Shown: positions 6,657-63,359, counted from the stretch's first letter. The stretch: 64,000 nucleotides of DNA from Pseudomonadota bacterium (GCA_005804885.1 SYOX01000269.1:9037-73036), one strand, 5' to 3'. The notes: generated by a model from the sequence alone, not told the origin. Numbers and translations are program-made.

Positions 6657-7115
6657 TCAGCTGGTCCCGCAGCCCTGCGCCAGCCCGCAGCTGGACTCGC
6701 ATGTGGCGGCGCCGCCGCAGGAGGTCGCGCAGCCGGCGCTGCAGCCCTTCGTCACGCAGGTGTTGGTGTCCGAACACTCCAAGGCGCAGCCGCCGCCCGG
6801 GCAGTTCATCTGGCACGAGGCCGCGCCGTCGCACTCCAGCGAGCAGTTGCCGCCCGGGCATGTCAGGCTGCAGTCGGCGCCCTGGCTGCACTCCATCGCG
6901 CAGCCGGCCCCATTGCCCCCACAGGTCAGCGCGCAGGCCTCGCCCTGGCAGATGCACGCCTTGCCGGCGACGCAAGGGGCCAGAGCATCCTCCTCGCTGC
7001 ACCCGCCGAGCGCCCCGAGCGCGCCGCTCAAGAGCACCCCCAGCATCACGAGCCTGTGCAGCAAGATCGATGGTGAGGCAGCGTCCAAAGAGGGGGTCAT
7101 GGCTTCCTCCATCAC
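6657..7115 (-). CDS. Cysteine-rich repeat lipoprotein (unknown function)
   Basis: Signal peptide plus lipobox (LGALGGC), followed by about 9 tandem 9-11-aa units of pattern C-x-[LM]-x-C-x(2-4)-G. Start codon uncertain among M1, M2 and M6. Confidence 0.6.
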   Translation of the reverse strand: MMEEAMTPSLDAASPSILLHRLVMLGVLLSGALGALGGCSEEDALAPCVAGKACICQGEACALTCGGNGAGCAMECSQGADCSLTCPGGNCSLECDGAASCQMNCPGGGCALECSDTNTCVTKGCSAGCATSCGGAATCESSCGLAQGCGTS

Positions 7116-7420: not shown

Positions 7421-10400
7421 ATGAACACAAAACATCTACTGTCAGCGCTCCTTCTATTGTCCATGGCGTTATGGGCGCCCTCGGTCGCCTTCGCCGCGGA
7501 TGGCGATGGCGACGGTGTGGAGGATGGGGCGGACAACTGCCCGACCGAGGCCAACGGCGATCAGCTCGACGGCGATCAGGACGGCGTCGGGGACTCCTGT
7601 GACAGCTGCCCGGGCTTGTTCAACACCGAGCAGGACGACAACGATCAGGACGGGGTCGGCGACGGCTGCGACGGCTGCCCGGACGACCCGGGCAAGATCG
7701 AGCCGGGCGCCTGCGGCTGCGACGAGTCGGACACAGACAGCGACAGCGACGGGTCTGAGGACTGCATTGATGGTTGCCCGGACGATCCGGACAAGATCAG
7801 CGGCGGGCTGTGCGGCTGCGGCGAGGCGGACACGAACGACAGCGACAACGACGGCTCGGCGGACTGCCTGGATGCCTGCCCCAATGACCCCTCCAAGAGC
7901 ATCCCCGGGCTCTGCGGGTGCGGGGTGGCGGATACGGACAGCGACAACGACGGCAGCGCGAACTGCTTCGACCTCTGCCCGGCGGACCCTGGCAAGACGG
8001 CGCCGGGCGCGTGCGGCTGCGGGTCCTCGGATCGGAACGACGACAACGACGGCCTGCCGGCCTGCGATGACAACTGCCCCGACGAGCCGAACACGGGTCA
8101 GCTCGACGAGGACGGCGACGGCGTGGGCGACGAGTGCGACAACTGCTTCCTCACCGCGAACGCCAACCAGGCCGACACGGACGGCGACGGCACGGGCAAC
8201 GCCTGCGATGCCTGCCCGGCCGATCCCCGCAAGGTGGCCCCCGGGTCCTGCGGGTGCGGCACGCCGGACAACGATCCCGACGGCGACAGCCAGGGCGCCT
8301 GCAATGACAACTGCCCGCTGGTGAACAACCCCGATCAAGATGACTCGGACGGCGACGGCGCCGGGGACGCCTGCGACAACTGCCCGGGGCTCTTCAACTC
8401 CGATCAGGACGACTCGGACGGCGACGGCATCGGCGACGACTGCGAGGCCTGCCCGCTGGATCCCGACAAGGCCGCCCCCGGCCAGTGCGGCTGCGGCGTG
8501 GCCGAGACGGACGGCGACGGTGACGGGAGCGCGGACTGCGTGGACAACTGCGAGGCCGACGCGAACGCCGATCAGGACGACGCGGACGGCGACGGCTTCG
8601 GGGATGTCTGCGACGACTGCGCCTCGGACCCCATCAAGTCCGAGGCCGGCCAGTGCGGCTGCGGCGTGGCGGACACGGACAGCGACGGCGACGGCACCGC
8701 GGACTGCGCGGACAACTGCCCGACTGTCGTCAACACCACCCAGGCTGACAACGACGGCGACGGCGCCGGCGATCTGTGCGACGGCTGCCCCGCGGACCCC
8801 GACAAGGGCGACGAGGGCCAGTGCGGCTGCGGCGTCGAGGACAGCGACGGTGACGGCGACGGGAGCGCGGACTGCACGGACAACTGCGCCAGCGACGCGA
8901 ACTCCGATCAGTCCGACGCGGACGGCGACGGCGCGGGCGACGTCTGCGACGGCTGCCCCGATGACGTCGACAAGACCTCGGCGGGCGTGTGCGGCTGCGG
9001 CGTCTCGGACGGCGACGGCGACGGCGACGGCGTGTCCGACTGCGCCGACAACTGCCCCGCTGAGGCCAACGCCAACCAGGCCGACACGGACAACGACGGC
9101 GACGGCGACGTCTGCGACGACTTCATCTGCCCGGGGCCGGGCGAGGTGCAGGGGGCGGAGGTGTGCGACGGGTCGGACAACGACTGCGACGGGCAGGTGG
9201 ACAACGGCGCGAGCTGCCCGCCTGGGACGGAGTGTCAGGCCGGGGCCTGCCAGGCCGGCCTGCCGGACTTCTCGGTGGTGACCTCCGACATCTTCATCGA
9301 GGATCGGGACATCGACGTGGGCGAGCTCTTCACCATCCAGGCCGAGATCCGCAACAACGGCGCCGTCGACGGCGTCAACGTCGGCGTGAACCTGCTCGAC
9401 ATGGGCTTCGTGGTGCGCTCGACCACCATCGACTTCCTGCCGGCCGGCGCCAGCGCCTCGGTGGAGTTCGAATTGTCCTTTGATGAGGCCAGCTTGCGCA
9501 TCGCCCAGGTGCGCGTCGATCCCGACGACTTCTTCGACGAGCTCGACGAGGAGAACAACAACGCCACCCAGATCGTCCGCGTCGGCCAGCCCCCTGCGGG
9601 CTTCAACGGCCGCCTCGTCGTCGAGTCCGGCGACGTGGCCACCTGCTTCGACCAGGAGGACCTGCACATCGGCGGCAAGGCCTACTACGAGTTCGAGGAT
9701 GAGGGCGTCGTGTTCACCTTCCCCGTCCAGGGCGGGCTGGTGACGCTCACCCTCGACGGCCGCGTCTTTACGACCCACACCAACGTCCACGGGAACTTCC
9801 TGTTCCACGAGGTCCCCGTGCCGTCCGGGTCAGGCAACTACCCGGCCGACATCGAGGTCAGCGACTCCGACATCGTCGGCTCGACCCAGATCATCGTCCA
9901 GGTGACCGATCAGAGCTGCAGCGGCGGCGGCCACGACGGCGGCGCTGGCAGCGAGGACATCTGGGTTTACAGCCACGACATCGTCTTTGAGCCCACCAAC
10001 CGGCCTCGGCTCGGCGAGACGCTCGAGATCACCTCGACGATCCACCACAACCTCGGCACGCCGCGGGCCGACATCCCCGTGACGGTCTTCGCCCACCACC
10101 CGGACGGCGGCCAGCTCGTGCGCCAGACGCTCGGCGTCGGCAAGGTCGACTTCGTCAGCGGCGGCCCCGAGCAGCAGGACTTCAAGGTGAGCTGGACCAA
10201 CGACGACGAGGGCGTCTACATCATCCAGACCGTCGTGGCCCCGAACTTCGCCCAGCACACCGGCAATGACGCGGCCACGCGCCTCGTCGTCGTCGGCGAT
10301 TACAAGCACTACCCGGCCGACATCACCCTGAGCCCCGATCCCTTCAACCGCCTCTGCGACTCGACCCTGACCGGCATCATCCAGCTCCCGGCCGATGTCG

Positions 10401-46896: not shown

Positions 46897-48276
46897 TTGG
46901 GAGAACTGGACAGGGCCGCGGCCGCTTGTAGGGTCGAGGGTCGAGGGCGCAGGGCGGAGGGGCGTGTGTCGGGTCGATGGACGAGGCGAGAGCTGCTGGC
47001 GGCGGGGGCGTGGGCGGGCGCCGGGCTGGCGGCGGGCCGCGCGATGGCGTGGGACGCGCCCTTGACGGGGGACTGGTCCGAGCCGCTGGGGCTGGGGTTG
47101 GAGGTGTCAGGGCGCGCGGGGCTGGAGCTGCCCGCGTGGGGGTCTGGCGAGGAGAGCGCGTCGTCGCAGACGGTGTTGATGTTCCGGGGCAACCCCTCGC
47201 ACACCTTCTATGGGACGGGGCCGGTGCCGGATCGGCCGGAGCTGTTGTGGTCCAGCAGGCTGGCCTCCTTCCCGACGACGCTGCGCGGCAAGCCGGTGAC
47301 GTGGGCGGGGACGGGCTGGACGGGCCAGGCCTCGAAGCTGGGGCGCTGGGTCTTCGTCGGGGGGCAGGGCTGCGTGCTCTACGCCTTTGACGCCGACAGC
47401 GGCGAGGTGGGCTGGCGCTTCCGGGCCGAGAGGATGTTCAAGAGCTCGCTGTGCGTCTACGAGAACCGGATCTACATCGGCAATGTGGACGACCACCTCT
47501 ATTGCGTGGACGCGCGAACGGGGAAGCTGGTGTGGCGCTACAACACGGGGGACGACTGCGACTCGTCGCCGTGCGTGTACCAGGACAAGGTCTACGTGTG
47601 CGGGGAGGCGGGGTTCGCGCACTGCCTGGAGCCGAGGACAGGGGCGGTGCACTGGAAGGCCTTCGTCGGCGGCATCGGGCCAGGGACGAAGCCAGGATCG
47701 AACGGCTCGGAGACCTCGCCGGCGGTCGACGACGGGGAGATGTACCTGGCCAACTACCACGGGGAGGTCAAGTGCCTGGACGCGCGCACGGGGCAGCAGC
47801 GGTGGGTGACGCAGACGGGGGACGACACGGACGCGTCGGTGGTGGTGCTGGGCGACAGGATCTACGCGGCGGCGGAGGCGGGCTCGCCGAAGGTCTTCTG
47901 CTTTGATCGGGCGGGCGGCCGGGAGGTGTGGTCGCGGTCCAACGGAGCGGGCTGGTGGTCGACGCCGGCGGTGGTGGGCGAGCGGCTCTACATCGGGGGT
48001 CACGACGGGGTGTTCTACTGCCTGGACGCGCGGGACGGGGCGGAGGTGTGGCGCTTCGAGGTGGGCGCGTCGGTGTGGAGCTCTCCGGTGGTGGTCGAGG
48101 ACAAGGTGATCTTTGGGAGCCTGGGGTCGAAGGTGCTGATGCTGGAGGCCGAGAGCGGGCGGCTCATCTGGGAGGTCGGGGTGCAGGGGGGGTGCTTCTC
48201 GACGCCCTGCGTGGTGGACGGGCGCATCTACGTGGGCTCGTCGGGGGGCGTGTTCTACTGCTTCGGGAGGGGCTGA
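46897..48276 (+). CDS. Exported PQQ-like beta-propeller repeat protein (Tat-type leader; start uncertain)
   Basis: RRELLAAGAWAGAGLAAGRAMA twin-arginine leader. Repeated blades LYAFDADSGEVGWRF / LYCVDARTGKLVWRY / VKCLDARTGQQRWV / FYCLDARDGAEVWRF. Confidence 0.75.
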   Translation: MGELDRAAAACRVEGRGRRAEGRVSGRWTRRELLAAGAWAGAGLAAGRAMAWDAPLTGDWSEPLGLGLEVSGRAGLELPAWGSGEESASSQTVLMFRGNPSHTFYGTGPVPDRPELLWSSRLASFPTTLRGKPVTWAGTGWTGQASKLGRWVFVGGQGCVLYAFDADSGEVGWRFRAERMFKSSLCVYENRIYIGNVDDHLYCVDARTGKLVWRYNTGDDCDSSPCVYQDKVYVCGEAGFAHCLEPRTGAVHWKAFVGGIGPGTKPGSNGSETSPAVDDGEMYLANYHGEVKCLDARTGQQRWVTQTGDDTDASVVVLGDRIYAAAEAGSPKVFCFDRAGGREVWSRSNGAGWWSTPAVVGERLYIGGHDGVFYCLDARDGAEVWRFEVGASVWSSPVVVEDKVIFGSLGSKVLMLEAESGRLIWEVGVQGGCFSTPCVVDGRIYVGSSGGVFYCFGRG

Positions 48277-48340
48277 TGGCCTGTTCAGGGCCGTAGCCAT
48301 CGGGATCGTGTGGGCGGGCGTCGGCTTCTTGTTTTTTTGT

Positions 48341-48370
48341 TTGACAGCGGCGTGAACTCTTGTCTAGTAT
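48341..48370 (+). promoter_or_regulatory. Candidate sigma70-type promoter of the WGR-SWIM-retron transcription unit
   Basis: TTGACA (48341-46), an 18-nt spacer, then TAGTAT (48365-70), in the only AT-rich patch of this region. A GAGAGGGGG Shine-Dalgarno sequence lies about 11 nt before the GTG at 48411. Confidence 0.4.
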
Positions 48371-48410
48371 GTCGATGGTCAACGCATTTTAGAGAGGGGG
48401 TTTCCTCACC

Positions 48411-51400
48411 GTGAAGCTTATCGAACAAACTGTCCTGGTTTTTACAGCCGGCCTCACCGAGAAGGTCTACGAGATCGATCTTTGTGAGGTGGGGGTGGGG
48501 CAGTATGTGGTGAACTTCCGGTATGGTCGGCGGGGTCACCCGCTCAAGGACGGCTCAAGGACGGTGCTGCCGGTGGGTCGGGTCGAGGCGGAGCGGGAGT
48601 ACGCCAAGCTCCGGGACGACAAGCTCAAGGCGGGATACCGAGAGGGCGGCGCGCCGACGCCGACGTCCAGCGCGCCGTCGATCGTGTCGACGACGCCAGC
48701 GCGGCCCGCGTCGAGCGGGCCGGTGAGGCCGACGATGTCGACGCCCTCGCCGCCGCCAGCGCGGCCCTCGCCGCCGCCGGTGACGGGGGTGATGCCGGGG
48801 GGGGCAGGGCGGTCGGCGCGGTCGGGGGTGTCGGCGGCCCAGGAGAGGGCGGTGCTCGATCGCTTGCGGCAGGGCGAGGTCGGCGTGGATCGGGGGGAGC
48901 CGCGCGGCGGGCGCTTCGCGGGCCGCGCGCGGCGGGTGATCGATCGGTTCAGCGGTCGAGCGACGCCGATGGAGACGCGCTGGAGGTTGAACCGGGCGAT
49001 ATGGCGCGCGGGGGAGATGAGGCTGCGCGACGCCGAGGGGCTGCTGCTGGGGATGCTGGGCAGCGGCCGGCCGATGCGGGATTACTGCGTGGCCTGGGCG
49101 CTGGGTTTTTGCGGCTCGTCGGCGTCGATCCCGACCTTGAACTGGATGTTCTCGGACGCGTCGAGGCCGGAGTTCGAGCGGCGGATCGCGGCCGAGGCGC
49201 TCTTGAAGGTCTACGACGAGCGCGGGAAGGGGGCGTTCAGGGAGTCGCTGCTGGCGTCGCTGCCGGGGTCCTTGCAGGGGCCGGCCCGTGGGGGATCTGC
49301 GGAGGTCTTCGCGGAGGCGCTGCGCGGGTATTTGAGCCCCGAGGCTCGGCATACGAACTTTGAGGTGCTGGACACGATCTACTTGATCGACAGCCCGACG
49401 GTGAGGCCGGCGCTGCTGGATGTGTTGAGGTCGGCGCCCTTGAGGCCGCCGTGGTTCAGGTCCATCCGCCACATCTTCAAGTCGTCGGAGTACCGCCGCG
49501 ACGGGGAGGTCTTCGGGATCATCGCGCACCGCTTCGAGAAGTCCCAGGCCTTCTTCCGGCAAGGGCGCTATGGCTCCTATGTGCGGGATAACTCTGGGAG
49601 ATCCCGGTGGCAGAACAGGGCGCAGGTGAAGGAGGAGCTCAAGCGAAGCTCGTCGACGATCGCCTACGGGGACACGACGCGCTGGTATTTGAGGCAGAGG
49701 GTGTGGTGGACGCTCGATCGGCTGGGGGAGCTTGACGACCCCGATTACGTCAAGATGTGCGTCGGCGTGTTGCTGCCCTACGCAGACAGTGACGCGCGGG
49801 CGACGAAGACGATCAGCCGCTATTCGTGGCGGCAACGGCGGTCGATCAACAAGCAGTGGGACGCGTGGGCGTCCTACCTCTCCTTCAACCACATCTTGTA
49901 CGGCAAGAGCCCTCGGTACGGCTTCAAGCGGGGGAGCAAGGCCTGGTTCTGCAAGGAGGGTTACAGCCTGGGGGGTCCGGAGCCGAGGGTGCGCGAGGAG
50001 TCCTTCGGGCACCTGTGGGACAGGGTGCCGCAGGGGCTCTTCCACCTGATGGCCGAGAGCAAGTGCGAGCCGGTGCACCGCTTCGCGGTCAAGGCGGCGC
50101 GGGGCAACAGGGCGGTGCTGAGTTCGCTGGGCGTCGACGCGATCGCGATGATGCTCGGCGCGGCCTACGAGGTGACGGCGGATCTGGGCTTTGAGCTGGC
50201 CGAGGCGCGCTACAACCCCTCGGCGCCGAGCCGGGAGCTCTTGCTGGCGGCGGCGACCTCGGTGTCCAGGGCGGCCAGGGAGCGCTCGCAGGTGTGGCTC
50301 AGGGATGGCCGAGGGCACTTCCTGTCGGATGGGGTGTTGCTGGCGCAGCTGATGACGTGCGCCTTCGAGGATACGCGGTGGTTCGTCAGAGAGGTGATCG
50401 ACGCCTCGTCGATCCCGGATCACGCGGCGCGGGGGCTGATCGGCCGGCTGGTGTCGCACCTGATGGGGCTCAAGGCGGGGGAGGAGGCGGTCGCGCGGGA
50501 CGTGGCCGACTTGCTCGTGCGGCGCTTCGGGTCGCTGCTGGCGGGGATCTCGCTGGAGGTGGTCCGGGATCTGCTGGGTCACGGGCTGTCGGAGGTGCAG
50601 TCCTTCGGCGCGGATGTGCTGCTGGCGCGTGAGGGCGAGCCGATGGTGGACTCTGGCACCGTCGAGGCGATGCTGGGGTCGAAGTTCGCGGGGGTGCGCG
50701 GTCGCGGCGTGCGGCTCCTCGGGCGCTTCTCGGATCGTGTCCTGCTGGGTCGCCAGGAGCTGTTGTTGACCTTGCTCCTGCACGAGCTGGGGGACGTGCG
50801 CGACGCGGCGCGGCCGATCGTGGCGCGGCTGGCCGGGGTGCACCCGATCTTCGCGGCGGAGGTCGTGCGCGTGTTGATCGACGTGCTGCTGGCCAACCGG
50901 ATCTCCGAGGAGGTGTCGCCCTTCGTGTCTCGGGTCTTGCGCGAGGATCTGAGCGGCGCGATGGCGGGCGTGTCGCGCGATCAGGTGTGGAGGCTGCTCA
51001 AGGGTTCGACGGGCGCGGCCCAGGAGGTCGGCGGGGTGTTGATGGGGACGCACCTGTCGCCGGAGTCGCTCAGCGTCGGTGAGCTCGTGGAGCTGTCCAG
51101 CCACGAGATCCTGTCGGTCAGGGTCGCGTCGCGCGGGATGCTGGAGCGCAGCGTCGGTCGGGTCAAGAAAGAGCTGGGGTTGGCGCTGGGGGTGCTGGAC
51201 TCGCGGTGGGATGACACGCGGGCCTGGGCCTTTGCCTACTTCCGGGATCGCTTCGAGGGTGATGACTGGACGCCGGGCTTGCTGGTGGGCATCTGCGACA
51301 GCGTCAAGGAGGACGTCCAGCGCTTCGGTCGTGAGATGATCACGCGCCACTTCCAGGACGAGTCAGGGCAGGAGATCATGCTCAAGCTCAGCGAGCACCC

Positions 51401-51752
51401 CTCGGGCAACCTGCAGCTCTTCGTGACCCATTATCTGGAGCGATACGCGGCCGGGGACGCGGCGCGGCTGCGGGAGCTGGCGCCCTACTTCAAGCGCGTG
51501 CTGTGCGGGATCAACCGGGGGAGGGTGGCCAAGAAGCGCATCTTTGACTTCCTGGGGCGCGAGGCGGCGGGCGGCCTGGAGGCCGCCGAGGTCGTCGCCG
51601 ACGTGCTCGACGGGGTGTCCGCCTCGATCTCGGTGGAGTCCAGGGCCGAGGCCATCGGGGTGTTGTTGAGCGTGCACGCAGCCCACCCGGGGATCGCGGT
51701 GCCGATCCGGGTCGTTGAGGTCGAAGAGCGCTCGGCGCGGGGAGGGCTGTGA
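48411..51752 (+). CDS. WGR-domain protein with Pro/Ser-rich linker and about 950 aa of HEAT/ARM-like helical repeats
   Basis: The N-terminus KVYEIDLCEVGVGQYVVNFRYGRRGHPLKDGSRTVLPVGRVEAEREYAKLRDDKLKAGYREGG is a WGR domain. The rest is helical-repeat-like (for example RDYCVAWALGFCGSSASIPTLNWMFSDASRPEFERRIAAEALLKV). Confidence 0.8.
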   Translation: MKLIEQTVLVFTAGLTEKVYEIDLCEVGVGQYVVNFRYGRRGHPLKDGSRTVLPVGRVEAEREYAKLRDDKLKAGYREGGAPTPTSSAPSIVSTTPARPASSGPVRPTMSTPSPPPARPSPPPVTGVMPGGAGRSARSGVSAAQERAVLDRLRQGEVGVDRGEPRGGRFAGRARRVIDRFSGRATPMETRWRLNRAIWRAGEMRLRDAEGLLLGMLGSGRPMRDYCVAWALGFCGSSASIPTLNWMFSDASRPEFERRIAAEALLKVYDERGKGAFRESLLASLPGSLQGPARGGSAEVFAEALRGYLSPEARHTNFEVLDTIYLIDSPTVRPALLDVLRSAPLRPPWFRSIRHIFKSSEYRRDGEVFGIIAHRFEKSQAFFRQGRYGSYVRDNSGRSRWQNRAQVKEELKRSSSTIAYGDTTRWYLRQRVWWTLDRLGELDDPDYVKMCVGVLLPYADSDARATKTISRYSWRQRRSINKQWDAWASYLSFNHILYGKSPRYGFKRGSKAWFCKEGYSLGGPEPRVREESFGHLWDRVPQGLFHLMAESKCEPVHRFAVKAARGNRAVLSSLGVDAIAMMLGAAYEVTADLGFELAEARYNPSAPSRELLLAAATSVSRAARERSQVWLRDGRGHFLSDGVLLAQLMTCAFEDTRWFVREVIDASSIPDHAARGLIGRLVSHLMGLKAGEEAVARDVADLLVRRFGSLLAGISLEVVRDLLGHGLSEVQSFGADVLLAREGEPMVDSGTVEAMLGSKFAGVRGRGVRLLGRFSDRVLLGRQELLLTLLLHELGDVRDAARPIVARLAGVHPIFAAEVVRVLIDVLLANRISEEVSPFVSRVLREDLSGAMAGVSRDQVWRLLKGSTGAAQEVGGVLMGTHLSPESLSVGELVELSSHEILSVRVASRGMLERSVGRVKKELGLALGVLDSRWDDTRAWAFAYFRDRFEGDDWTPGLLVGICDSVKEDVQRFGREMITRHFQDESGQEIMLKLSEHPSGNLQLFVTHYLERYAAGDAARLRELAPYFKRVLCGINRGRVAKKRIFDFLGREAAGGLEAAEVVADVLDGVSASISVESRAEAIGVLLSVHAAHPGIAVPIRVVEVEERSARGGL

Positions 51753-53404
51753 TGGAGTTCACCTACTCCTACCTGGGCAGCAGCGGGGTGCGCAACCGAG
51801 GGGAAGGGACGGCGATGTCCTTCGTGCCGGACGCGCGCCGGGAGCCGACCTTCTTCAGGGGGCGGCTGCGCAAGAATATCGCCTTCCGAGAGGCGATCAG
51901 CGCGCTGCACGACGTGGTCATCTCGGACTTGCGCTACCAGCCCAAGGACAAGACGCATTACAAGGAGTGGCTTGAGCGCCAGGAGATGGTCGACTGGGCG
52001 GCGGTGTCGGGGCAGCGGGCCGAGGTCGAGCGCCTCGTGGCGCCCTTGCAGCGCGAGCTCAACGAGGTCAACCAGCGGATCAGCGAGCAGATGTCCGCCT
52101 ACTGGCGGGCGCAGTCGAGCCTCTACACCTACATGTACGAGCGGGATCGCAACGTCTGGTTCGTGCTCGATCCGGTGATCACGGTCCCCCCCGCCGAGGT
52201 CTTCTTCGAGTGCTTCAGCCAGGATGAGTCGAGCTACGGTCGCCTTGGGGCCAGCTACGAGGTCTTCAAGGACATCGGCGAGTTCGCCTGCGGGACGACG
52301 AACGTGGACTACTCGTCCGAGCTCTACGACGAGTTCCAGAAGATCCGCTCGTACAAGGAGACGGACTTCGAGGTTGATCCGTCGGGCTTCGAGGTCAGGA
52401 CGGAGGGCGAGGAGGCGCACAAGGAGGTCAAGATCGACCTTCCGGACACATGGGTCCGGGGTTTCTTGCAGGTCAACTCGGCCATGGCGATGCCCTCGGT
52501 GCGCTTTGATCTGCACCCGATGGACGTGCACAACTTCTGCTTCGTGCTGCGGCGGAACAAGGAGAAGAAGGGCCCTCGCTCGATGCGCTATGTGTTGAGG
52601 CCCGGCGAGCCGGTGCGGGTGATCTTCGAGCCCTGGGGTCTGGAGGTGGTCTGCCCGCGTTCGATCTTCAAGGGGGAGGAGGCCCACGAGATCCGGGTCT
52701 GGGGTCGCCGTCGGATTCAGATCCTCGAGCGGCTCATCCCGGCGGCGAGGCGCTTTACGGTGCACCTGCTCGGCCAGGGGATGCCCTCGTTCTATGTGGC
52801 GGATCTGGGGGACATGTCCTTCACGCTGGGGTTGTCGGGCTGGACGAAGAACGACTGGTCGACGGCGGGCAACTTCGATCTGATGGCGCCGCGAGCGGCG
52901 GTCGACAACATGACGATGCGGCGGGTCTTCCACGGCCTCAAGGAGACCTGGTTCGAGGCGCCGGACAGGCTGGCCAGCCGCCTGGGGCTGGATCGGTCGG
53001 TGGTGCTCGGTGCGCTCGGGGCCTACACGCAGGCGGGCCGGGCGATCTACGACATCAACAAGAATGTCTATAGAGTTCGGGAGCTTAGCCGCGAGCCCCT
53101 GCCCATGGACAGGCTGCGCTTCGCCAACGAGCGCGAGCAGGAGGCGACGGCCCTGGTCGATCAGGGCAAGGTCACCGTGTTGCGGGCCGATCGGACGCCG
53201 GAGGCGGCGCTTCGGCTGTCGGGCCGCGTGCGGGAGGGGCGCGAGGAGCTTCTCCCGAGTTTGCTTATTGATCCGGATGAGCGTATTATCGAGGCAGAGT
53301 GCTCTTGTTACTGGCATCGTCAGAACAAGCTCTACAAGGGCCCCTGCTCACACATCCTGGCGCTGCGGATGGGACATTCGCGGCGCTCGGGTCGAAGGCC
53401 GTAG
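51749..53404 (+). CDS. SWIM zinc-finger protein (551 aa)
   Basis: C-terminal CSCYWHRQNKLYKGPCSHILAL matches the SWIM signature CxC-x(n)-CxH. The start (GTG 51749 / ATG 51752) overlaps the stop of the WGR gene. Confidence 0.8.
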   Translation: MMEFTYSYLGSSGVRNRGEGTAMSFVPDARREPTFFRGRLRKNIAFREAISALHDVVISDLRYQPKDKTHYKEWLERQEMVDWAAVSGQRAEVERLVAPLQRELNEVNQRISEQMSAYWRAQSSLYTYMYERDRNVWFVLDPVITVPPAEVFFECFSQDESSYGRLGASYEVFKDIGEFACGTTNVDYSSELYDEFQKIRSYKETDFEVDPSGFEVRTEGEEAHKEVKIDLPDTWVRGFLQVNSAMAMPSVRFDLHPMDVHNFCFVLRRNKEKKGPRSMRYVLRPGEPVRVIFEPWGLEVVCPRSIFKGEEAHEIRVWGRRRIQILERLIPAARRFTVHLLGQGMPSFYVADLGDMSFTLGLSGWTKNDWSTAGNFDLMAPRAAVDNMTMRRVFHGLKETWFEAPDRLASRLGLDRSVVLGALGAYTQAGRAIYDINKNVYRVRELSREPLPMDRLRFANEREQEATALVDQGKVTVLRADRTPEAALRLSGRVREGREELLPSLLIDPDERIIEAECSCYWHRQNKLYKGPCSHILALRMGHSRRSGRRP

Positions 53405-53454
53405 CTGGACGGCGAGGGGGGTATTGTGAGATTTTTCCAGCAGAGTGCTGAGAG

Positions 53455-53701
53455 CCCACAGACGCAACGGGCAGAGGTGACAGGGCCTTGCAACCCGGGC
53501 GGCGGATCGCCGTCCATGTCGAATGACCTGCCATGCGTCACTGGCTCGCTCCTTACTTGGGCGTGGGCAGGGTCCCCGTCGGCTTTGCGGACCCGTTTCC
53601 GTGAAAGCCAAATGCCGACGGGGACCCCGCCCACGCTTGAGTTGAGCGATCCAGTCAACGGACCTTTCGAAGGTGTCACTTCTGACCGTTGCGCCTGTGG
53701 G
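53455..53701 (+). ncRNA. Retron non-coding RNA (msr-msd): flanking inverted repeats, msr about 53483-53540, msd template about 53541-53673
   Basis: 53455-53482 (CCCACAGACGCAACGGGCAGAGGTGACA) pairs with 53674-53701 (TGTCACTTCTGACCGTTGCGCCTGTGGG): 25 Watson-Crick pairs, 1 G-U and 2 mismatches. A GGG follows the 5' arm directly. 53541-53654 forms a 114-nt imperfect hairpin, including GCGTGGGCAGGGTCCCCGTCGGC / GCCGACGGGGACCCCGCCCACGC. The RT ATG lies 9 nt after the 3' arm. Confidence 0.75.
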
Positions 53702-53709
53702 TTCCCATC

Positions 53710-55341
53710 ATGACCAGCCAGCCCAGCTCCCGCCAGGAGCTCTACGATCGCATCCGCGAGGTCGGCCGGACGCAGTTCATCTATGAGCAGATGGTCCGGC
53801 TCGGCTTCTGGGCAGGCCCCCACCCGAACAGCATCGCCTCGGCCGAACACGCGCGCAAGCAGGAGCTCATCGCCCAGCTCAACGTCCTGCGCACCGAGCA
53901 GTCCAGGCTCCGCAACACCGCCGAGCTGCTCAAGGAGGCCCGCAAGCGCCGGATGGCCGACAGCCGCCTGCGCCAGCAGGAGACCAAGGCGCGCCGCGAG
54001 CGCGAGCGCGAGCGCCGCGCCCAGGCCTGGGCCGAGCGCAAGCAGCTCGACCTCCTCCACCTCGGCCCTGGCCGCTCAGGGGGCCTCAACGACGCCGCCC
54101 TTGAGGTCGACCTGCTGGCCCGCTTTGGCCTGCCGCCCCTGGGCTCCCCCCACGAGATCGCCTCGGCGATGGGGATCACCCTGGGCGAGCTGCGCTTTCT
54201 GGCTTACGGCCGCCCCGTCAGCCAGGTCTCCCACTACGTCCGCTTCAAGCTCCCCAAGAAGACCGGCGGCCACCGCCTCATCTCCGCGCCCATGCCGCGC
54301 CTCAAGCGCGCCCAGCGCTGGATCTACGACAACATCCTGAGCCGCTTGCAGGTCCACGACGCCGCCCACGGCTTCCTCCCCGGCCGCTCCATCGTCAGCA
54401 ATGCGCGCCCTCACGTCGGCGCCGAGGTCGTCGTCAACCTCGACCTCAAGGACTTCTTCCCCACGATGACCTACCCGAGGGTCTGGGGCGTCTTCCGCTC
54501 GCTGGGCTACTCCAAGGCCGCCACGACCGTCTTCGCCATGCTCTGCACCGAGCCCGAGAGCGTCCAGATCGATCTCGACGGCCGCCGCTACTTCGTGGCC
54601 ACCTCCGAGCGCTTCCTGCCCCAGGGCGCCCCGACCAGCCCCGCCATCACCAACTGGGCCTGTCGTCGGCTCGACCAGCGCCTCTGCGACATCGCCGCGC
54701 TCAACGGCTTCTCCGCCTACACCCGCTACGCCGACGACCTGACCTTCTCCGGCGACAAGGCCGCCCTCCCCAAGGTCGGCCGCCTGCTCTCCCAGGCCCG
54801 CAATGTCATCGCCGACGAGCGCTTCGTCGTCCACCCCGACAAGACCCGCGTCCTCCACCGTGGGCGCCGCCAGGAGGTCACCGGCCTCGTCGTCAACGAC
54901 CTCCCCAACATCCCCCGCGACACCCTGCGCCGCTTCCGCGCCCTCCTCTTCCAGATCGAGAAGGACGGCCCCGAGGGCAAGCAATGGGGCGCCGGCGGCG
55001 ACGTCATCAACTCCATCGAGGGCTTCGCCAACTACGTCCTGATGGTCAACCCCGCCAAGGGCGCAGCCTTCAAGGCCCAGATCGCGCGCATCGTCGCCCG
55101 CCACGGCCGACCCGCCCCGCGCTACGCCCCCTCGGCGCCCGCGCTCGGCGCAGCCCCGGCCCTCTCCCCCTCTCCCACCCCGACCCACGGCGGGCCTCCG
55201 AGCAACCCTTCTCCATCCTTGCCTGAAATTCCTGTCTCTCCGCCCTCCTCGCCTGTCGCCCCCATCGAGGTCGACGTCCCCGAGGGCGGCCCTGAGGGCA
55301 CCCAGGGTGAGGACTCGAAGAAGTGGTGGAAGATGTGGTAG
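53710..55341 (+). CDS. Retron-type reverse transcriptase with about 150-aa N-terminal coiled-coil/basic extension and Pro-rich C-terminal tail
   Basis: RT motifs VVNLDLKDFFPT, LPQGAPTSPAITN, YTRYADDLTFSG (YADD box) and the retron-typical RQEVTGLVVN (VTG) motif. LGELRFLAY...HYVRFKLPKKTGGHRLISAP is the usual retron-RT entry. A TTG at 53689 is an alternative start. Confidence 0.9.
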   Translation: MTSQPSSRQELYDRIREVGRTQFIYEQMVRLGFWAGPHPNSIASAEHARKQELIAQLNVLRTEQSRLRNTAELLKEARKRRMADSRLRQQETKARRERERERRAQAWAERKQLDLLHLGPGRSGGLNDAALEVDLLARFGLPPLGSPHEIASAMGITLGELRFLAYGRPVSQVSHYVRFKLPKKTGGHRLISAPMPRLKRAQRWIYDNILSRLQVHDAAHGFLPGRSIVSNARPHVGAEVVVNLDLKDFFPTMTYPRVWGVFRSLGYSKAATTVFAMLCTEPESVQIDLDGRRYFVATSERFLPQGAPTSPAITNWACRRLDQRLCDIAALNGFSAYTRYADDLTFSGDKAALPKVGRLLSQARNVIADERFVVHPDKTRVLHRGRRQEVTGLVVNDLPNIPRDTLRRFRALLFQIEKDGPEGKQWGAGGDVINSIEGFANYVLMVNPAKGAAFKAQIARIVARHGRPAPRYAPSAPALGAAPALSPSPTPTHGGPPSNPSPSLPEIPVSPPSSPVAPIEVDVPEGGPEGTQGEDSKKWWKMW

Positions 55342-55456
55342 GTCCCCGGCTCCTCTCCCCCTGATGGGTGGTTGACGGCGCCCGGCAGGTCTGCTTCCCT
55401 CTGAGAACGACGCCGCCCGCAGGGGCTGGCCCATCGCCAACCCTCTCAGGAGCAGC

Positions 55457-55807
55457 ATGTCAGAGCCCCCCCCCAAGCGCATCATCCGCCACATCCAGCC
55501 CATGGGCCCCCGCGTGCTCGTGCGCGTCCTCAAGGACGACGATCGCCACGAGTCCGGCCTCTACCTCCCCCCCGGCGCCCGCGAGAGCTTCGCCGAAGCC
55601 CTCTACGGCGAGGTCGTCGAGGTCGCCCGCGCCTCCTCGGACGAGGCCGACATCGGCGCGAACGTCTCCGGCGTGCCCTGCGGCGCGCGCATCCTCTTCC
55701 CCAAGGAGGCCGGCACGCGCGTCCCCTGGGACGACGCGCTGCGCGTCCTGGAGGTCTCCAAGGTGCTCGCCCTCGTCGAAGAGATCCCGCTGGAGGAGAC
55801 CCACTGA
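55457..55807 (+). CDS. Stand-alone divergent GroES/Cpn10-like protein
   Basis: IQPMGPRVLVRVLKDDDRHESGLYLPPGARESFAEALYGEVVEVA...GARILFPKEAGTRVPWDDALRVLEVSKVLALVEE follows the Cpn10 pattern (I-P-L-x-D-R-V-L-V ... G-x-V-v-A-V-G ... G-D-x-V-l-f). Good AGGAG RBS. No groEL nearby. Confidence 0.65.
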   Translation: MSEPPPKRIIRHIQPMGPRVLVRVLKDDDRHESGLYLPPGARESFAEALYGEVVEVARASSDEADIGANVSGVPCGARILFPKEAGTRVPWDDALRVLEVSKVLALVEEIPLEETH

Positions 55808-55824
55808 ACACCCTCATCCAACCC

Positions 55825-56460
55825 ATGATCCTGGTCGGGGGCCACTCCAGCCGCTTCGGCGCCAACAAGGCCCTGCACGTCTGGAGGGGCCGGGCGCTCG
55901 TCGATCACATCATCGCGGCCGTGCGCGTCGCGCTCGACCCCCCCGACATCTGGATCAACGTCCGCCGCGTCGGCCAGGACCCCAGGCTCCTCGAACACCT
56001 CCAGCGCCACGAGGGCCTGACCTTCCTGGAGGACGATCCGGCGCTCTCTGGCCCCGCCGCCGGGCTCTCGGCGGGCTTCAGCTGGGCGGCGAGGCGGCAG
56101 ATCCCGTGGGTCCTGGCCCTGAGCTGCGACCTGCCGGCGGTGCGGATACAGCTCCTGGCTCGGATGGCCGAGCTCGCCCTGGACCCCGCGCACGCCCACG
56201 ACGCCCTGGTGCCCGTCACCCGCGATGAGTTCGGCCAGCCCCGCTTCGAGGCCCTCCACGCCCTCTTTCGCCCCGAGCCCGCGCTCGACGCCTTGGAGCG
56301 GGCCACCGCCGACGGGCGCATGAGCCTCCAGCGCGTCATCGGCGCGCTGGCGTCCCCCATGCTCCTCGGCCCCGCAGAGCTTGAGGCGCTGGACCCGGCG
56401 TGGCGGCGATCGCTGACGAACGTTAACACGGTCGATGATCTTGATCTTATTGAGGAATAG
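55825..56460 (+). CDS. MobA-like NTP transferase (molybdenum cofactor guanylyltransferase family)
   Basis: MILVGGHSSRFGANKALHVWRGRALVDHI (LAGGxSxRMGxDK-type N-terminus), GPAAGLSAG and LSCDLP motifs. Confidence 0.7.
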   Translation: MILVGGHSSRFGANKALHVWRGRALVDHIIAAVRVALDPPDIWINVRRVGQDPRLLEHLQRHEGLTFLEDDPALSGPAAGLSAGFSWAARRQIPWVLALSCDLPAVRIQLLARMAELALDPAHAHDALVPVTRDEFGQPRFEALHALFRPEPALDALERATADGRMSLQRVIGALASPMLLGPAELEALDPAWRRSLTNVNTVDDLDLIEE

Positions 56461-59995: not shown

Positions 59996-60448
59996 TCAGG
60001 CCACCCGCCGCTCGCCGCGCTGGCGAGCGCGCAGCGGGTGCCGCGTCGACAGGCTGCGGTTGTGCTGGACGGCCTGGATCCCTCGCCGCGTCTCGACGGC
60101 CACGCAGATCGGCGCCATCAGGTTGATGGTCGGCGAGGTGGGGGTCGAGACGTTGACGATGGCCAGCACGCTGACGTCGCCGGCGCCAGCGTCGGCGCCC
60201 AGGCCCAGCGTCTCAATCTCGGACTCTTCGAGCCGGATCTCGTAGTTGCTGCAGACCCACGCCGGGTTGAGGGTCGGGAAGGCGACCTCGGGGGCGTCGA
60301 CGGCCTGCAGCCACTTGAAGGGGCCGCCAGGGTGCTCAATGAGGAGGAAGCGGGTCAGGTGGGTGAAGCCGAGGATCCCCTCAGGGAAGTGAATGCACTG
60401 CTGGTCATCGATCTCGACGGTTCCAAAACGGGTGGTGTGGACCTGCAC
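59996..60448 (-). CDS. fliW: Flagellar assembly factor FliW (CsrA antagonist)
   Basis: VQVHTTRFGTVEIDDQQCIHFPEGILGFTHLTRFLLIEHPGGPFKWLQAVDAPEVAFPTLNP matches the FliW pattern. GTG at 60448 follows a GGAGGGA RBS. Confidence 0.85.
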   Translation of the reverse strand: MQVHTTRFGTVEIDDQQCIHFPEGILGFTHLTRFLLIEHPGGPFKWLQAVDAPEVAFPTLNPAWVCSNYEIRLEESEIETLGLGADAGAGDVSVLAIVNVSTPTSPTINLMAPICVAVETRRGIQAVQHNRSLSTRHPLRARQRGERRVA

Positions 60449-60515
60449 GTCGCGTCCCTCCTGCCGGTCAACGCGCCGCTCTGGCCGCTGACCTCTTCGG
60501 CGGGGGACGCCTCTT

Positions 60516-60827
60516 CTAATCGTCCTCCGTGCCGGTGTTTTCGTTACCCCCGCTCTTCTTCCGTGCGAGCAGGGGATCTGGATCATTCGCTTCGACGGCC
60601 TCGCCGTCGAACTCCAGGACCAGCTCATCGATCTCGTCGGGCCCTGCCTGCGTAGAGGCCTGGTTCTCGTCGACGATGTTCTGGTAGACCTCTTCCCGGA
60701 ATATCTTCACATCCCGAGGGGCCACGATCCCGATCCGGACCTGGTTCTTCCGGATCTCCTTGACGACGATCTGGATGTCGTCGCCAATTCTGATCGTCTC
60801 CCCGATCTTGCGTGTTAGGGTCAGCAT
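60516..60827 (-). CDS. csrA: Carbon storage regulator CsrA with about 45-aa acidic C-terminal extension
   Basis: [48 protein letters not shown] is the CsrA core. Confidence 0.9.
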
Positions 60828-61010
60828 GTCCTCTCCAGTAACGAGAGTCGACGGTCAGACCCAAGAGTACCCGCTCGGGGCGCCTGGTCAAAAACTAGGC
60901 CTTGATTTTTCCAGTTATTAAAGGGTGTTACACACCTCCTGTTGTCGCCATGTCGCCGCACACCGCCGCGGCTGTAATCCGCACACCTACACCTGCCGCG
61001 GTCCGCCTCA

Positions 61011-61889
61011 TCACCTCAAGATGTCCAGCAAGCTCGTCTGCATCGATCTCCCCGCGATCTGGACGGCCGCCTGCAGCGCCTGCTCCTGGCCGACGAGCTG
61101 GCTGATGACGGAGGCCATGTCCGCATCGGCCTCCCCCGCGCGCTGCCGCGTCAATTCGAAGGTGACCTCCTCGGCCAGCGCCTCGCTCATCCTCACTCGC
61201 CCGATCCGGGCGCCGAGGTCCGTGCGGGCGTCGATGATCTGATCCTCCAGGCCCGTCAGCGCGTCGAGCTCCTGGCCCAGCGCCGCGGGGTCATTGCCTT
61301 CGAGCGCCGCCACGATCCGATCGAGCGTCTGGAGCACGCTGGCCCCGCCGGCCAGAAACCGCTGCCCGTCGATGGCGGCGTCGATGGGCGAGCCGACGCC
61401 GATCTTGACCGGGCTGCCCGCGCCTCCGCCCTGGTAGGTGCCGTCGTCGGCCAGCGGCGGCCGATCCGTCCGCGTACCGGAGAAGATGAACTGGCCGTCG
61501 ACCTTCGTGTTGGCAAGCCCCAGCATGTGCTCGCGGAGCGCCCGCACCTCGTGCGCCGTCGACTGGCGCGTCGCGGCGCTCTGGGCGCCGTTGAGCCCCC
61601 CGATCGTCAGCTCCCTGGCCCGCTCCAACACCGACTCCATGTCCCCGAGCGCGCCCTCGGCCACCTCAAAGCGGGACAGCACCCGCGCCGCGCTCTGGCG
61701 TGTCCCCTCCAGCGCCGCCAGCCGGTGATCCAGCCCCGCGATCCGCCCGAAGGAGCCCGGATCGTCCGAGGGCCTGATCACCCGCTGCCCCGAGGCCGCC
61801 TGCGCCTGGAGCCGGGATGTCTCGACCCGCGCGCGCGCGATGCGCTGCGTCTGCGCGCCAAAGATCTGCTTGTCGGAGATCCTCACCAT
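61011..61889 (-). CDS. flgL: Flagellar hook-associated protein 3 (FlgL)
   Basis: MVRISDKQIF... flagellin-family N-terminus and a C-terminal ...AAVQIAGRSMQTSLLDILR helix. Lies directly after flgK. Confidence 0.8.
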   Translation of the reverse strand: MVRISDKQIFGAQTQRIARARVETSRLQAQAASGQRVIRPSDDPGSFGRIAGLDHRLAALEGTRQSAARVLSRFEVAEGALGDMESVLERARELTIGGLNGAQSAATRQSTAHEVRALREHMLGLANTKVDGQFIFSGTRTDRPPLADDGTYQGGGAGSPVKIGVGSPIDAAIDGQRFLAGGASVLQTLDRIVAALEGNDPAALGQELDALTGLEDQIIDARTDLGARIGRVRMSEALAEEVTFELTRQRAGEADADMASVISQLVGQEQALQAAVQIAGRSMQTSLLDILR

Positions 61890-61907
61890 CGCCTCGACTC
61901 CCTCACC

Positions 61908-63296
61908 TCAGATCATCCCGAGGACGGTCTGCATCAGCTCATCGGCCACGCGGACCAGCCGGCTGGCCGCCTCGAAGCCCTGTTGAAACTTCACGAGGTC
62001 TGCCATCTCCTCGTCGAGGCTCACCCCGCGGGTCGACTCGCGCAGGCTCTCGAAGGTCTGAGCCCTGGCCTCGGCGGACTCCAGCCCGTCGAAGGTCTGA
62101 TCGACCGCCTGCCCCGCCGAGATCTGGAGCGCCGTCAGCGCCTCCTCGACGCTCCTCCCCGCCAGCCCCCCGATCGCGCGCTCGCGGACCTCGGCGAGCT
62201 CAATCGACAGCTCCGAGCCCCCCGGCAGGCGCCCGGCCTGTCGGGTGGCCGCGATCGCGCCAGGGTCCGCCGTGATCGCCGCCGAGACGTCGATCCGCCC
62301 TGCGGCGCCCTCCTGCTCATCCACGCCCTCGAAGAAGGCGCGCCCCGTGGCGCCGTCGAGGCCGACGCCCTGGCGGTGCAGCTCGTCCACGGCCCCGGCC
62401 AGCCCGAAGGCCAGCGCGTCGAGCGCCTCGATGGCGCCTCGGATGTCCTCGTCGTGGGCCTTGATCAGCCCGCCCACCTCGCCGCGGGCGTCCTGGGCGC
62501 GCAGCGCCACGGGCGGCCCGCCGGGTCCGGCCAGGCGCAGGTCAAGGCGATCGTCGACGACCTGGAGCTGGAGCTTGCTGGAGCGCGCGCCGCTGACCAG
62601 CGAGGCCCCCGAGGCCAGCGACACCGACACCGCCCCGTCGCCGTGCTCGATGACCCGCGCCCCGATCAACCCCGACAGCTCGTCCAGCGCCTTGTCGCGC
62701 TCGTCGCGCAGCTCGGCCGCCTCGACATCGCCAACCTCGGCCACGGCGAGGTCGCCGTTGATCCGGGCGACCCGCTCGGACAGCGCGTTGACCCGCTGGA
62801 GGCCGTCCCTCAAGGTCTGCTCGACCGGCCCGCGCATCGCGTCGAGCTCGGCGCGGGTCTGACGAAAGGACTCCGAGAGCACCTGCCCGCGATGAACCAC
62901 CTCGGCGCGCTCAACGTCGCCATCCGGGCGGCTCGACAGCTGCCCGAAGGCGTCAAAGAAGCCGTCGAGCGCCGCCGCCAGCCCCGCGCCCTCCGGGGCC
63001 ACCACGGCCTCGATGGTCTCCAGCGTCGCGCGGCGCCCCTGATGAAAGGAGACCTCCTCGCGCGCCTGCCGCACCGTCCTGTTCGAGAGCAGATCGACCA
63101 CCCGCCGAGGCTGCTCAAGGTTCACCCCCGACGCCGTCATGCGCCCCGCGCCGAGGCCCAGGCTCGACAGGGTCCCTCGCCGTCGGCTGTAACCGACCGT
63201 GGCGGCGTTGGTGGCGTTCTGCCCAGACAGCTCCATCGCCGCCCGGTGCGCCCCCATGGCGTGTCGACCTGTATTGAGGATGTTGCTGATGGGCAT
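61908..63296 (-). CDS. flgK: Flagellar hook-associated protein 1 (FlgK)
   Basis: MPISNILNTGRHAMGAHRAAMELSGQNATNAATVGYSRR N-terminus and a C-terminal VSLDEEMADLVKFQQGFEAASRLV helix. Confidence 0.85.
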   Translation of the reverse strand: MPISNILNTGRHAMGAHRAAMELSGQNATNAATVGYSRRRGTLSSLGLGAGRMTASGVNLEQPRRVVDLLSNRTVRQAREEVSFHQGRRATLETIEAVVAPEGAGLAAALDGFFDAFGQLSSRPDGDVERAEVVHRGQVLSESFRQTRAELDAMRGPVEQTLRDGLQRVNALSERVARINGDLAVAEVGDVEAAELRDERDKALDELSGLIGARVIEHGDGAVSVSLASGASLVSGARSSKLQLQVVDDRLDLRLAGPGGPPVALRAQDARGEVGGLIKAHDEDIRGAIEALDALAFGLAGAVDELHRQGVGLDGATGRAFFEGVDEQEGAAGRIDVSAAITADPGAIAATRQAGRLPGGSELSIELAEVRERAIGGLAGRSVEEALTALQISAGQAVDQTFDGLESAEARAQTFESLRESTRGVSLDEEMADLVKFQQGFEAASRLVRVADELMQTVLGMI

Positions 63297-63359
63297 CTCT
63301 CTCTCCCTGCTTGCGATCTCCACATCGGCAGCGCGAGCCCGTGGCTTGAGCCAAAGCCC

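Follow-up and report, generated by a model that had tools for sequence, protein, structure and literature searches.

The DNA analysed here (hereafter the window) is a stretch of 64,000 nucleotides from a Pseudomonadota bacterium (GCA_005804885.1 SYOX01000269.1:9037-73036), and positions 48,341 to 53,404 carry two large genes that lead directly into a retron. The first encodes a WGR domain followed by a solenoid of HEAT repeats (WGR-HEAT) and the second a protein ending in a SWIM zinc finger (SWIM). Together with the non-coding RNA (ncRNA) and the reverse transcriptase (RT) gene that follow, they almost certainly form a complete type XIII retron operon consisting of promoter, WGR-HEAT gene, SWIM gene, msr-msd ncRNA and RT gene. 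Membership in type XIII follows from the fact that all three proteins match the corresponding PADLOC models over their full length: WGR_XIII with 1026 bits (E = 0, residues 1-1107), SWIM_XIII with 776 bits (E = 2.9e-234, residues 1-543) and RT_XIII with 595 bits (E = 2.3e-179, residues 2-469), the last being the best among 45 RT models. The sequence features by which the class is recognized are found at the locus, i.e. an RT_XIII protein with a YADD motif, an adjacent msr-msd, a SWIM protein of the cluster-114 type and, upstream, a WGR-HEAT protein of the cluster-216 type.

The class was defined by Mestre et al. (2020, NAR) through a clade-10 RT, a class-specific ncRNA and accessory proteins, and its experimentally known members are Retron-Mxa1 (Mx162), Mxa2 (Mx65), Sau1 (Sa163) and Nex2 (Ne144) (PMC7736814). 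Mx162, the first retron to be discovered, thus belongs to type XIII. The architecture was already catalogued in 2020 and built into defence-annotation tools, and the locus is not new in kind. It is new as a sequence, being at most 70% identical to anything found; the nearest homologues share 70% identity with SWIM, 52% with WGR-HEAT and 59% with the RT. As in the rest of the class, the RT belongs to clade 10 and is extended at its N-terminus, the SWIM protein combines a winged helix with a CxCx12CxH finger, a WGR plus HEAT/ARM protein is encoded upstream, and the ncRNA has the type XIII shape and can be aligned, with covariation, with the ncRNAs of related loci. In contrast, the Pro-rich insertions in the WGR linker and in the RT tail are lineage-specific, the optional second Asp of the published D-x7-[D]-x4-E motif is A148 here, and the host has flagellar genes, so that it is probably no classical myxobacterium. 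According to a 2026 SPIRE survey preprint, type XIII is the third most abundant retron group and the one with the broadest phylogenetic distribution. The first-pass annotation of this region had mentioned a published retron class accompanied by a HEAT/ARM protein and a winged-helix/SWIM protein and had considered it mechanistically uncharacterized. The first statement was correct, the class being type XIII (PMC7736814), and the second fits as well: the literature searched contained neither a functional or structural study of type XIII retrons nor an experimental report of phage protection by them, and sequence searches of the PDB gave no related solved structure for either accessory protein.

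The operon and its signals are laid out as follows.

48327-48340: T-rich tract between the end of the upstream gene and the promoter candidate
48341-48370, plus strand: sigma-70-like promoter candidate from a sequence scan (TTGACA, 18-nt spacer, TAGTAT)
48411-51752, plus strand: WGR-HEAT gene, GTG start, 1113 aa; homologues begin MKLI...
51752-53404, plus strand: SWIM gene, 550 aa from the ATG at 51752; alternative GTG start at 51749
53405-53451, plus strand: spacer from the SWIM stop to the ncRNA, free of terminator and promoter consensus
53452-53708, plus strand: retron ncRNA (msr-msd), from folding, covariation and nhmmer
53710-55341, plus strand: retron RT gene, 543 aa, with YADD and RVT_1

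The G+C content of the window is about 70%, which produces long open reading frames (ORFs) on either strand. WGR-HEAT and SWIM are real genes rather than shadow ORFs of high-GC DNA, since the G+C content at third codon positions (GC3, 0.91 and 0.89, respectively) contrasts with that at second positions (GC2, 0.50 and 0.43), as in the other genes of the window, and since each of them has hundreds to thousands of homologues. Two antisense ORFs on the minus strand, 48555-51350 (931 aa) and 51485-53317 (610 aa), were rejected as shadows. Two large ORFs overlapping stop and start on a shared strand had been claimed at the outset, and the ORF coordinates and the junction sequence (GGGGAGGGCTGTGATGGAG) bear this out. 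The WGR-HEAT stop codon TGA (51750-51752) has one base in common with the SWIM ATG (GGGGAGGGCTGTGATGG), an overlap of 1 nt, which would increase to 4 nt with GTG 51749 as the start. The latter corresponds to the SWIM protein of 551 aa with a GTGATG overlap as originally annotated; the overlap stands, but the start is most likely the ATG at 51752, because homologues begin MEF..., and we prefer the protein of 550 aa. With a GGAGG-like Shine-Dalgarno sequence 6-12 nt 5′ of the SWIM start, the geometry of the junction fits translational coupling.

The other transcriptional features proposed in the first-pass annotation were recovered as well. Promoter-like sites occur twice in 8.8 kb compared to 0.2 expected from shuffled sequence, and the candidate at 48341-48370, described there as a plausible promoter, lies in the 134-nt gap 3′ of a PQQ (pyrroloquinoline quinone) beta-propeller gene on the same strand that ends at 48276. 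Between the SWIM stop at 53404 and the start of the 5′ inverted repeat at ~53452-53455 lies the expected spacer of ~50 nt. A sequence scan found no terminator-like site in 53405-53454, again as stated, and folding of the spacer is no more stable than that of shuffled sequence (z = +1.05). Terminator-like matches are at chance level (3 found, 3.4 expected), two of them lying within the SWIM coding sequence. The GC skew is about +0.15 across the WGR-HEAT and SWIM genes and about -0.2 across the RT gene on the same strand (53500-56000).

The association of the two proteins with the retron extends far beyond this locus. One genome per GTDB species was scanned, yielding at least 549 loci with a close SWIM relative, and linkage was counted in the best 80 of these, fetched with up to 10 kb of flanking sequence from Cyanobacteria, Myxococcota, Acidobacteriota, Planctomycetota, Chromatiales and others. 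A WGR-HEAT gene is present in 61 of the 67 loci with at least 3.5 kb of upstream sequence, in 60 of them upstream on the same strand, and the gap between the two genes is -4 to ~40 nt in many non-cyanobacterial loci. Similarly, 43 of the 63 loci with at least 3.5 kb downstream contain an RT_XIII-like gene, all but one downstream and on the same strand. The order WGR-SWIM-ncRNA-RT recurs across at least five phyla. The linkage to a retron RT and ncRNA, which the first-pass annotation had itself named as the test of its proposal, is thus strong across the fetched loci.

The position of the ncRNA is the most telling part of this arrangement. It starts no more than 450 nt from the SWIM stop in 69-70 of 79 loci (~88%), with a median gap of 20 nt. 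These include a dozen loci in which the RT gene lies 1-8 kb further on (in L002, for example, the ncRNA is at 6854-7079 and the RT at 9574) and most of the 20 loci, all of them cyanobacterial, that have no RT within the fetched flank (e.g. L008, L016, L017, L043 and L049, without RT in 10 kb). The ncRNA is therefore linked to the SWIM gene more tightly than to that of the RT, which strengthens the original description of the pair as feeding directly into the retron. The short SWIM-ncRNA spacers point to co-transcription or to an ncRNA promoter inside the SWIM coding sequence. All-against-all clustering of the ORFs of 81 loci revealed no fourth conserved gene family, the apparent recurrent clusters being antisense shadow ORFs. 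Pairwise-identity matrices of WGR-HEAT, SWIM and RT, calculated for 33 loci in which the genes are clean and full-length, correlate with r = 0.93-0.95; such values can arise from shared descent alone and speak for inheritance as a unit, not necessarily for physical contact. Mean pairwise identity is highest for SWIM (0.71), followed by the RT (0.63) and WGR-HEAT (0.47), which makes SWIM the most constrained and slowest-evolving component. It is well supported that the two large proteins are the dedicated accessory pair of the retron, as originally proposed; the PADLOC type XIII matches, the recurrent gene order across phyla and the co-divergence all agree on this point.

The ncRNA itself has the following elements.

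~53452-53481, plus strand: a1 arm of the inverted repeat
~53471-53473, plus strand: conserved CAG with the likely priming G, by analogy with the CAGC of Mx162 and Sa163
53497-53515, plus strand: a conserved msr hairpin (example)
~53536-53660, plus strand: long msd hairpin
~53678-53708, plus strand: a2 arm of the inverted repeat

Its minimum free energy is -166.6 kcal/mol (z = -10.3), and an RNAalifold consensus of 12 sequences from myxobacterial, acidobacterial and cyanobacterial loci contains compensatory changes in 46 of 68 pairs. An nhmmer profile of the ncRNA matches positions 53456-53703 with E = 4.6e-51. Across phyla, the sequence is nearly invariant in the msr hairpins and at the base of the msd stem and covaries freely in the distal msd stem; the conserved stem base would fit a protein recognition site. 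The priming G likely resides within the CAG, judging from Mx162 and Sa163 where it is found in CAGC (PMC6868368). A search of the 48-56 kb region against Rfam matched no retron family, and the miRNA-like matches on the msd hairpin, far below their gathering scores, were dismissed as chance.

The RT has the YADD motif, a Pfam RVT_1 match at 2e-20 and matches to retron RTs among PDB sequences down to E = 6e-40. Its N-terminal extension of ~135 aa is conserved, tblastn alignments starting at residue 1, and an extended N-terminus is also carried by myxococcal RTs (PMC6868368).

The ncRNA is not always single. Tandem arrays of 2-4 copies were observed 3′ of the SWIM gene in several loci (L020 11725-12701, L027 11728-12701, L013, L018, L050, L060 and L073). 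In L027 the msr and the msd stem base are conserved among the copies, and the distal msd stem and a1/a2 vary with compensatory changes. Such diversified copies suggest that one RT may make several multicopy single-stranded DNAs (msDNAs). In nine cyanobacterial loci of the Oscillatoriales type, RNase III proteins with a double-stranded RNA-binding domain are encoded between ncRNA and RT (L002 8322-9536; L004 12183-12815 and 13130-13843; L006, L007, L012, L030, L050, L072). A Swt1-like HEPN domain is attached to some of these RNase III proteins, and an NYN RNase is encoded in some of the loci as well. The RNase III, HEPN and NYN genes are candidates for ncRNA-processing enzymes or for extra effectors; RNase III would fit the need to process a polycistronic precursor.

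The SWIM protein can be divided into the following parts.

residues 1-135: conserved N-terminal module with a 50-residue helix
residues ~138-365: predicted clamp-like beta/alpha region containing D140, E153, D186 and E225
residues ~386-445: winged helix, followed by a small beta domain
residues 507-538: SWIM finger (Pfam), C517-x-C519-x12-C532-x-H534

The AlphaFold2 (AF2) model of this protein (pLDDT 73.9, pTM 0.70) points to a resemblance with sliding clamps. Foldseek returned 435 matches in the PDB at E <=1e-3, and all 50 listed are PCNA or beta clamps, with E values of ~2e-8, a probability of 1.0 and a target TM of ~0.6 over ~250 columns spanning the whole PCNA protomer; in BFVD, PCNA and sliding clamps make up most of the top 50. 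For the central part of the SWIM protein the prediction is therefore a PCNA/sliding-clamp-like fold and not a transposase fold. We do not take the protein to be a clamp: according to the model it is clamp-like in fold only. What it would share with PCNA, beta clamps and viral processivity factors is the predicted fold of its central ~230-250 residues; unlike them, it has no sequence similarity to clamps in Pfam or the PDB, its clamp-like region is joined to a winged helix and a SWIM finger and carries an invariant acidic set, and the confidence of the model is moderate. The assignment of the first clamp sub-domain is uncertain because the model is weakest at residues 128-147. No clamp-like prediction for this protein was found in the literature searched. 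Neither single-sequence nor profile searches of the PDB gave an informative match, and none was to clamps, while Pfam searches with 49 orthologues (E <=1) gave only SWIM and weak winged-helix matches (DprA_WH, HTH).

The acidic residues D140, E153, D186 and E225 are invariant in the 49 orthologues and were read by Mestre et al. as a DEDE nuclease/transposase-like motif (PMC7736814). Since they lie partly in the least confident region of the model, a cryptic active site is conceivable. The earlier statement that neither protein has a recognizable catalytic domain thus holds for profile libraries but has to be qualified by the existence of this acidic set.

The WGR-HEAT protein is organized as follows.

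residues 1-78: WGR domain, motif Y38-G39-R40, five strands and a helix
residues ~81-190: Pro-rich disordered linker, non-conserved
residues ~190-1095: HEAT solenoid, uninterrupted
residues ~380-485: small, highly conserved beta insert in the solenoid

Pfam detects HEAT_2 at residues 195-264, and WGR at residues 17-78 with 16.4 bits, which is below the Pfam cut-off; most homologues carry PF05406. The residues N35, R37, G39, R40 and G42 of the WGR domain are invariant, and the AF2 model (pLDDT 86.5) shows a WGR fold and a HEAT solenoid. Foldseek with this model found only solenoids (SF3B1, CAND1, PP2A-A, karyopherins) and no enzyme, and we draw no functional analogy from them. Low-complexity stretches rich in Pro, Ser and Ala make up both the WGR linker (48651-48980, residues 81-190) and the RT tail (55120-55338, residues ~470-543); they are non-conserved in homologues and predicted to be disordered.

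Relatives of the SWIM protein also occur outside type XIII retrons. The family comprises 1511 clusters (50% identity) at E <=1e-3 and 407 at <=1e-30. A shorter branch lacks the N-terminal 135 residues and is homologous over residues 138-544 (hhalign probability 99.4%, E = 2e-21); it is found on plasmids of Streptomyces (linear), Diaphorobacter, Asticcacaulis and Chondrinema, spanning plasmids of Actinomycetota, Betaproteobacteria and Bacteroidota. Three of these loci were examined, in Streptomyces, Diaphorobacter and Chondrinema (L082 8767-12842; L084 6752-13085; L085 6770-11053), and in all three one or two DUF6493 proteins are encoded 3′ of the short SWIM gene in overlapping or near-abutting frames, with no RT annotated nearby. 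Like the SWIM protein studied here, these relatives have D140, E153, D186 and E225, an LPDxWxRGF motif, the winged helix and the finger, and are translationally coupled to a large partner (~800-980 aa). They differ in that SWIM comes first, reversing the order, in that the partner is DUF6493/DUF7824, and in the missing retron-type N-terminal module. DUF6493, absent from PADLOC, was considered as a relative of WGR-HEAT and rejected, no homology being detected. In Diaphorobacter the SWIM-DUF6493 pair adjoins an integrase and a VapC/Phd pair. Megaplasmids of Clostridium butyricum (Firmicutes) carry a divergent version with 31% identity. Its HEAT-like gene (978 aa), SWIM gene (602 aa) and RT gene (502 aa) all overlap (L083 4065-10314), so that the ncRNA cannot sit between SWIM and RT.

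We have combined these data in a model for the function of the accessory pair. Our overall explanation, to which we incline with some reserve, is that the pair would form an msDNA-bound partner complex, a particle of the guard type. Within this explanation, binding of the accessory proteins to msDNA is probable, and we count in its favour the nucleic-acid-binding modules, i.e. the WGR domain, the predicted clamp-like fold, the weak winged-helix matches and the SWIM finger. An anti-phage role of the system, suggested by analogy, seems to us evenly balanced between true and false, and any specific output mechanism would at present be doubtful. According to the model both accessory genes, the ncRNA and the RT would be expressed as a single transcript, and the ncRNA would then be cut out of it, with an RNase III-type activity at the a1/a2 duplex as a plausible means. 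The RT would make an msDNA with a long hairpin and the accessory pair would assemble on the msDNA-RT particle. With its clamp-like region, winged helix and finger, SWIM might hold the conserved base of the msd stem, the WGR domain might read the DNA end or the 2′-5′ branch, and the HEAT solenoid might serve as a scaffold, including for the RT. The particle would act as a guard that changes its state when phage activity alters the msDNA, as argued from Ec86, Ec78, Eco8 and Ec83. The output is the weakest step; our leading guess is non-enzymatic DNA binding by a released clamp/HEAT module, and the other candidate would be a cryptic metal-dependent nuclease formed by D140, E153, D186 and E225.

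In this context, a comparison with the solved retrons (Ec86/Eco1 II-A, Ec78 I-A, Eco8 I-B2, Ec83, Ec67/Eco2) is useful. Common to both are a retron RT, an ncRNA with a1/a2 and an msd hairpin, and accessory genes in the operon, whose products assemble on msDNA in the solved systems. Their effectors are enzymes or ATPases (NDT, SMC-like ATPase plus HNH, OLD/Toprim), whereas the type XIII accessories are a HEAT scaffold and a clamp-like/winged-helix/SWIM protein encoded upstream of the ncRNA, and the type XIII ncRNA stays with the SWIM gene and not with the RT. A further-reaching proposal is that this represents a new retron output without a conventional toxin domain, in which the clamp/winged-helix/SWIM and WGR-HEAT proteins would use msDNA as their ligand and in which the module would be older than the retron grafted onto it; as a whole this is a tentative idea that may well turn out to be wrong. 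The existence of RT-less SWIM and DUF6493 pairs suggests that the module predates its retron, and the attachment of the ncRNA to SWIM rather than to the RT supports grafting onto an existing DNA-surveillance machine.

Several explanations compete with that of an msDNA-bound guard particle. Mestre et al. proposed that the SWIM protein is a transposase-derived nuclease (PMC7736814). In this case it would be a metal-dependent effector descended from an IS256/Mutator-like DEDE transposase, restrained by msDNA-RT, unleashed by infection and regulated by WGR-HEAT. In favour of this are the invariance of the four acidic residues in the orthologues and the fact that the Streptomyces homologue without an RT (28% identity) retains them together with D232. 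Nowhere in the protein is conservation higher than in segment 138-245, beyond what a passive scaffold appears to need, SWIM fingers go with MULE (Mutator-like element) transposases (PMC7736814), and the low AF2 confidence around residues 128-147 leaves room for a different local fold. On the other hand, none of the 49 members has a Pfam nuclease or transposase match at E <=1, no PDB sequence matches, and the 50 top structural matches, all clamps in the PDB and mostly clamps in BFVD, include no RNase H-like or DDE enzyme. In the model, moreover, the second strand carries E153, and E225 lies in a strand and not in a helix, which would be unusual for a DDE layout. We therefore consider a SWIM nuclease possible but rather improbable. 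Far less likely still is the suggestion in the first-pass annotation that the locus is a yeh-type WGR/SWIM module in which the MoxR AAA+ and VWA genes were swapped for the retron RT. The E. coli yehF-yehQ region (WGR YehF, DUF4132 YehI, MoxR YehL, VWA YehP, SWIM YehQ) has in common with our locus a WGR domain and a SWIM finger, and the likeness ends with these domain types. The AAA+ and VWA genes present there have no counterpart here: MoxR/VWA genes were found neither within ~10 kb in the window nor recurrently in the fetched loci. The SWIM_XIII profile aligns with YehQ over 33 residues of the finger (hhalign probability 0.7%) and the WGR-HEAT profile reaches a probability of <=0.4% with YehI and YehM, these single-sequence targets limiting the sensitivity of both comparisons. 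The RT-less SWIM relatives found also pair with DUF6493 and not with MoxR/VWA. At the level of sequence profiles, the yeh-type origin is thus largely refuted, YehQ, YehI and YehM showing no similarity in these comparisons beyond the SWIM finger. That the two genes do something unrelated and only happen to lie beside the retron is hardly credible, given the same order and strand in at least five phyla, the ncRNA abutting the SWIM stop in ~88% of loci, the co-divergence and the use of precisely these genes by PADLOC and Mestre et al. to define the class.

A number of observations weigh against a guard particle in phage defence, and some of them feed an explanation of a different kind. Neither Pfam nor Foldseek detects an enzymatic domain in either accessory protein, the SWIM model falls to a pLDDT below 50 at residues 128-147 where the invariant acidic residues begin, and an internal promoter may exist in the 3′ end of the SWIM gene. 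The neighbours of the locus are housekeeping genes and the surroundings are no defence island; they encode a penicillin amidase, methyltransferases, DUF362, the PQQ propeller, Cpn10-like, MobA-like and SLT/TPR proteins and flagellar proteins. GC3 is host-like. No homologues were found in 2.9 million viral contigs and 50,697 phage records, and among plasmids the system occurs only on megaplasmids or chromids. The SWIM protein is ~66-70% identical across phyla, and type XIII correlates with host 16S (PMC7736814). GC3, neighbours, conservation and the lack of phage homologues make the locus unlike a typical mobile defence gene. Vertical inheritance and host-like codon use have been described for myxobacterial retrons (PMC6868368; PMC7736814), which matches the context here. 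The flagellar genes (FliW, a flagellin-like gene, FlgK; 59996-63323, minus strand) lie close to the retron and indicate that the host is probably no classical non-flagellated myxobacterium; the nearest relatives of the locus include metagenome-assembled genomes of Myxococcota. Mutants of Myxococcus xanthus without msDNA are reportedly viable, which would argue against msDNA simply neutralizing a toxin.

These properties would suit a ribonucleoprotein that has been domesticated, is inherited vertically and serves large-genome bacteria with complex lifestyles in a function such as DNA repair, replication surveillance or regulation; msDNA would be a cofactor of the clamp-like SWIM protein and the HEAT scaffold. 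Host-like codon composition and housekeeping neighbours, the absence from the phage and viral collections searched and from small mobilizable plasmids, and the unusual conservation of SWIM over Cyanobacteria, Myxococcota, Acidobacteriota, Planctomycetota and Chromatiales all point in this direction. Evidence of vertical inheritance has been published and domestication has been suggested (PMC7736814; PMC6868368 citing Rice and Lampson 1995), and msDNA was present in 27 of 28 myxobacterial strains (PMC6868368). The patchy distribution across species of these phyla, by contrast, has the flavour of a conflict system, as do the ncRNA copies in tandem, whose msd tips have diversified, and the insertion of genes for HEPN, NYN and RNase III proteins, and one RT-less relative adjoins an integrase and a toxin-antitoxin pair. 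To our knowledge, moreover, every retron class tested so far, all of them other than type XIII, is a defence system. Given the conservation and the context we regard a domesticated role outside defence as a serious rival, even if on balance we think it unlikely, and we continue to lean towards the msDNA-bound guard particle.

The locus adds nothing to the catalogue of retrons. Type XIII, to which the founding retrons Mx162 and Sa163 belong, has apparently been left mechanistically unexplored, and the value of the present data, if they hold, would lie in the comparative handles that they offer for a first mechanistic study: the predicted clamp-like fold, the SWIM-linked ncRNA, the tandem ncRNA arrays, the RNase genes embedded in cyanobacterial loci and the RT-less sister module. 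If they hold, these results would also be relevant to the long-standing question why msDNA has been retained in myxobacteria.

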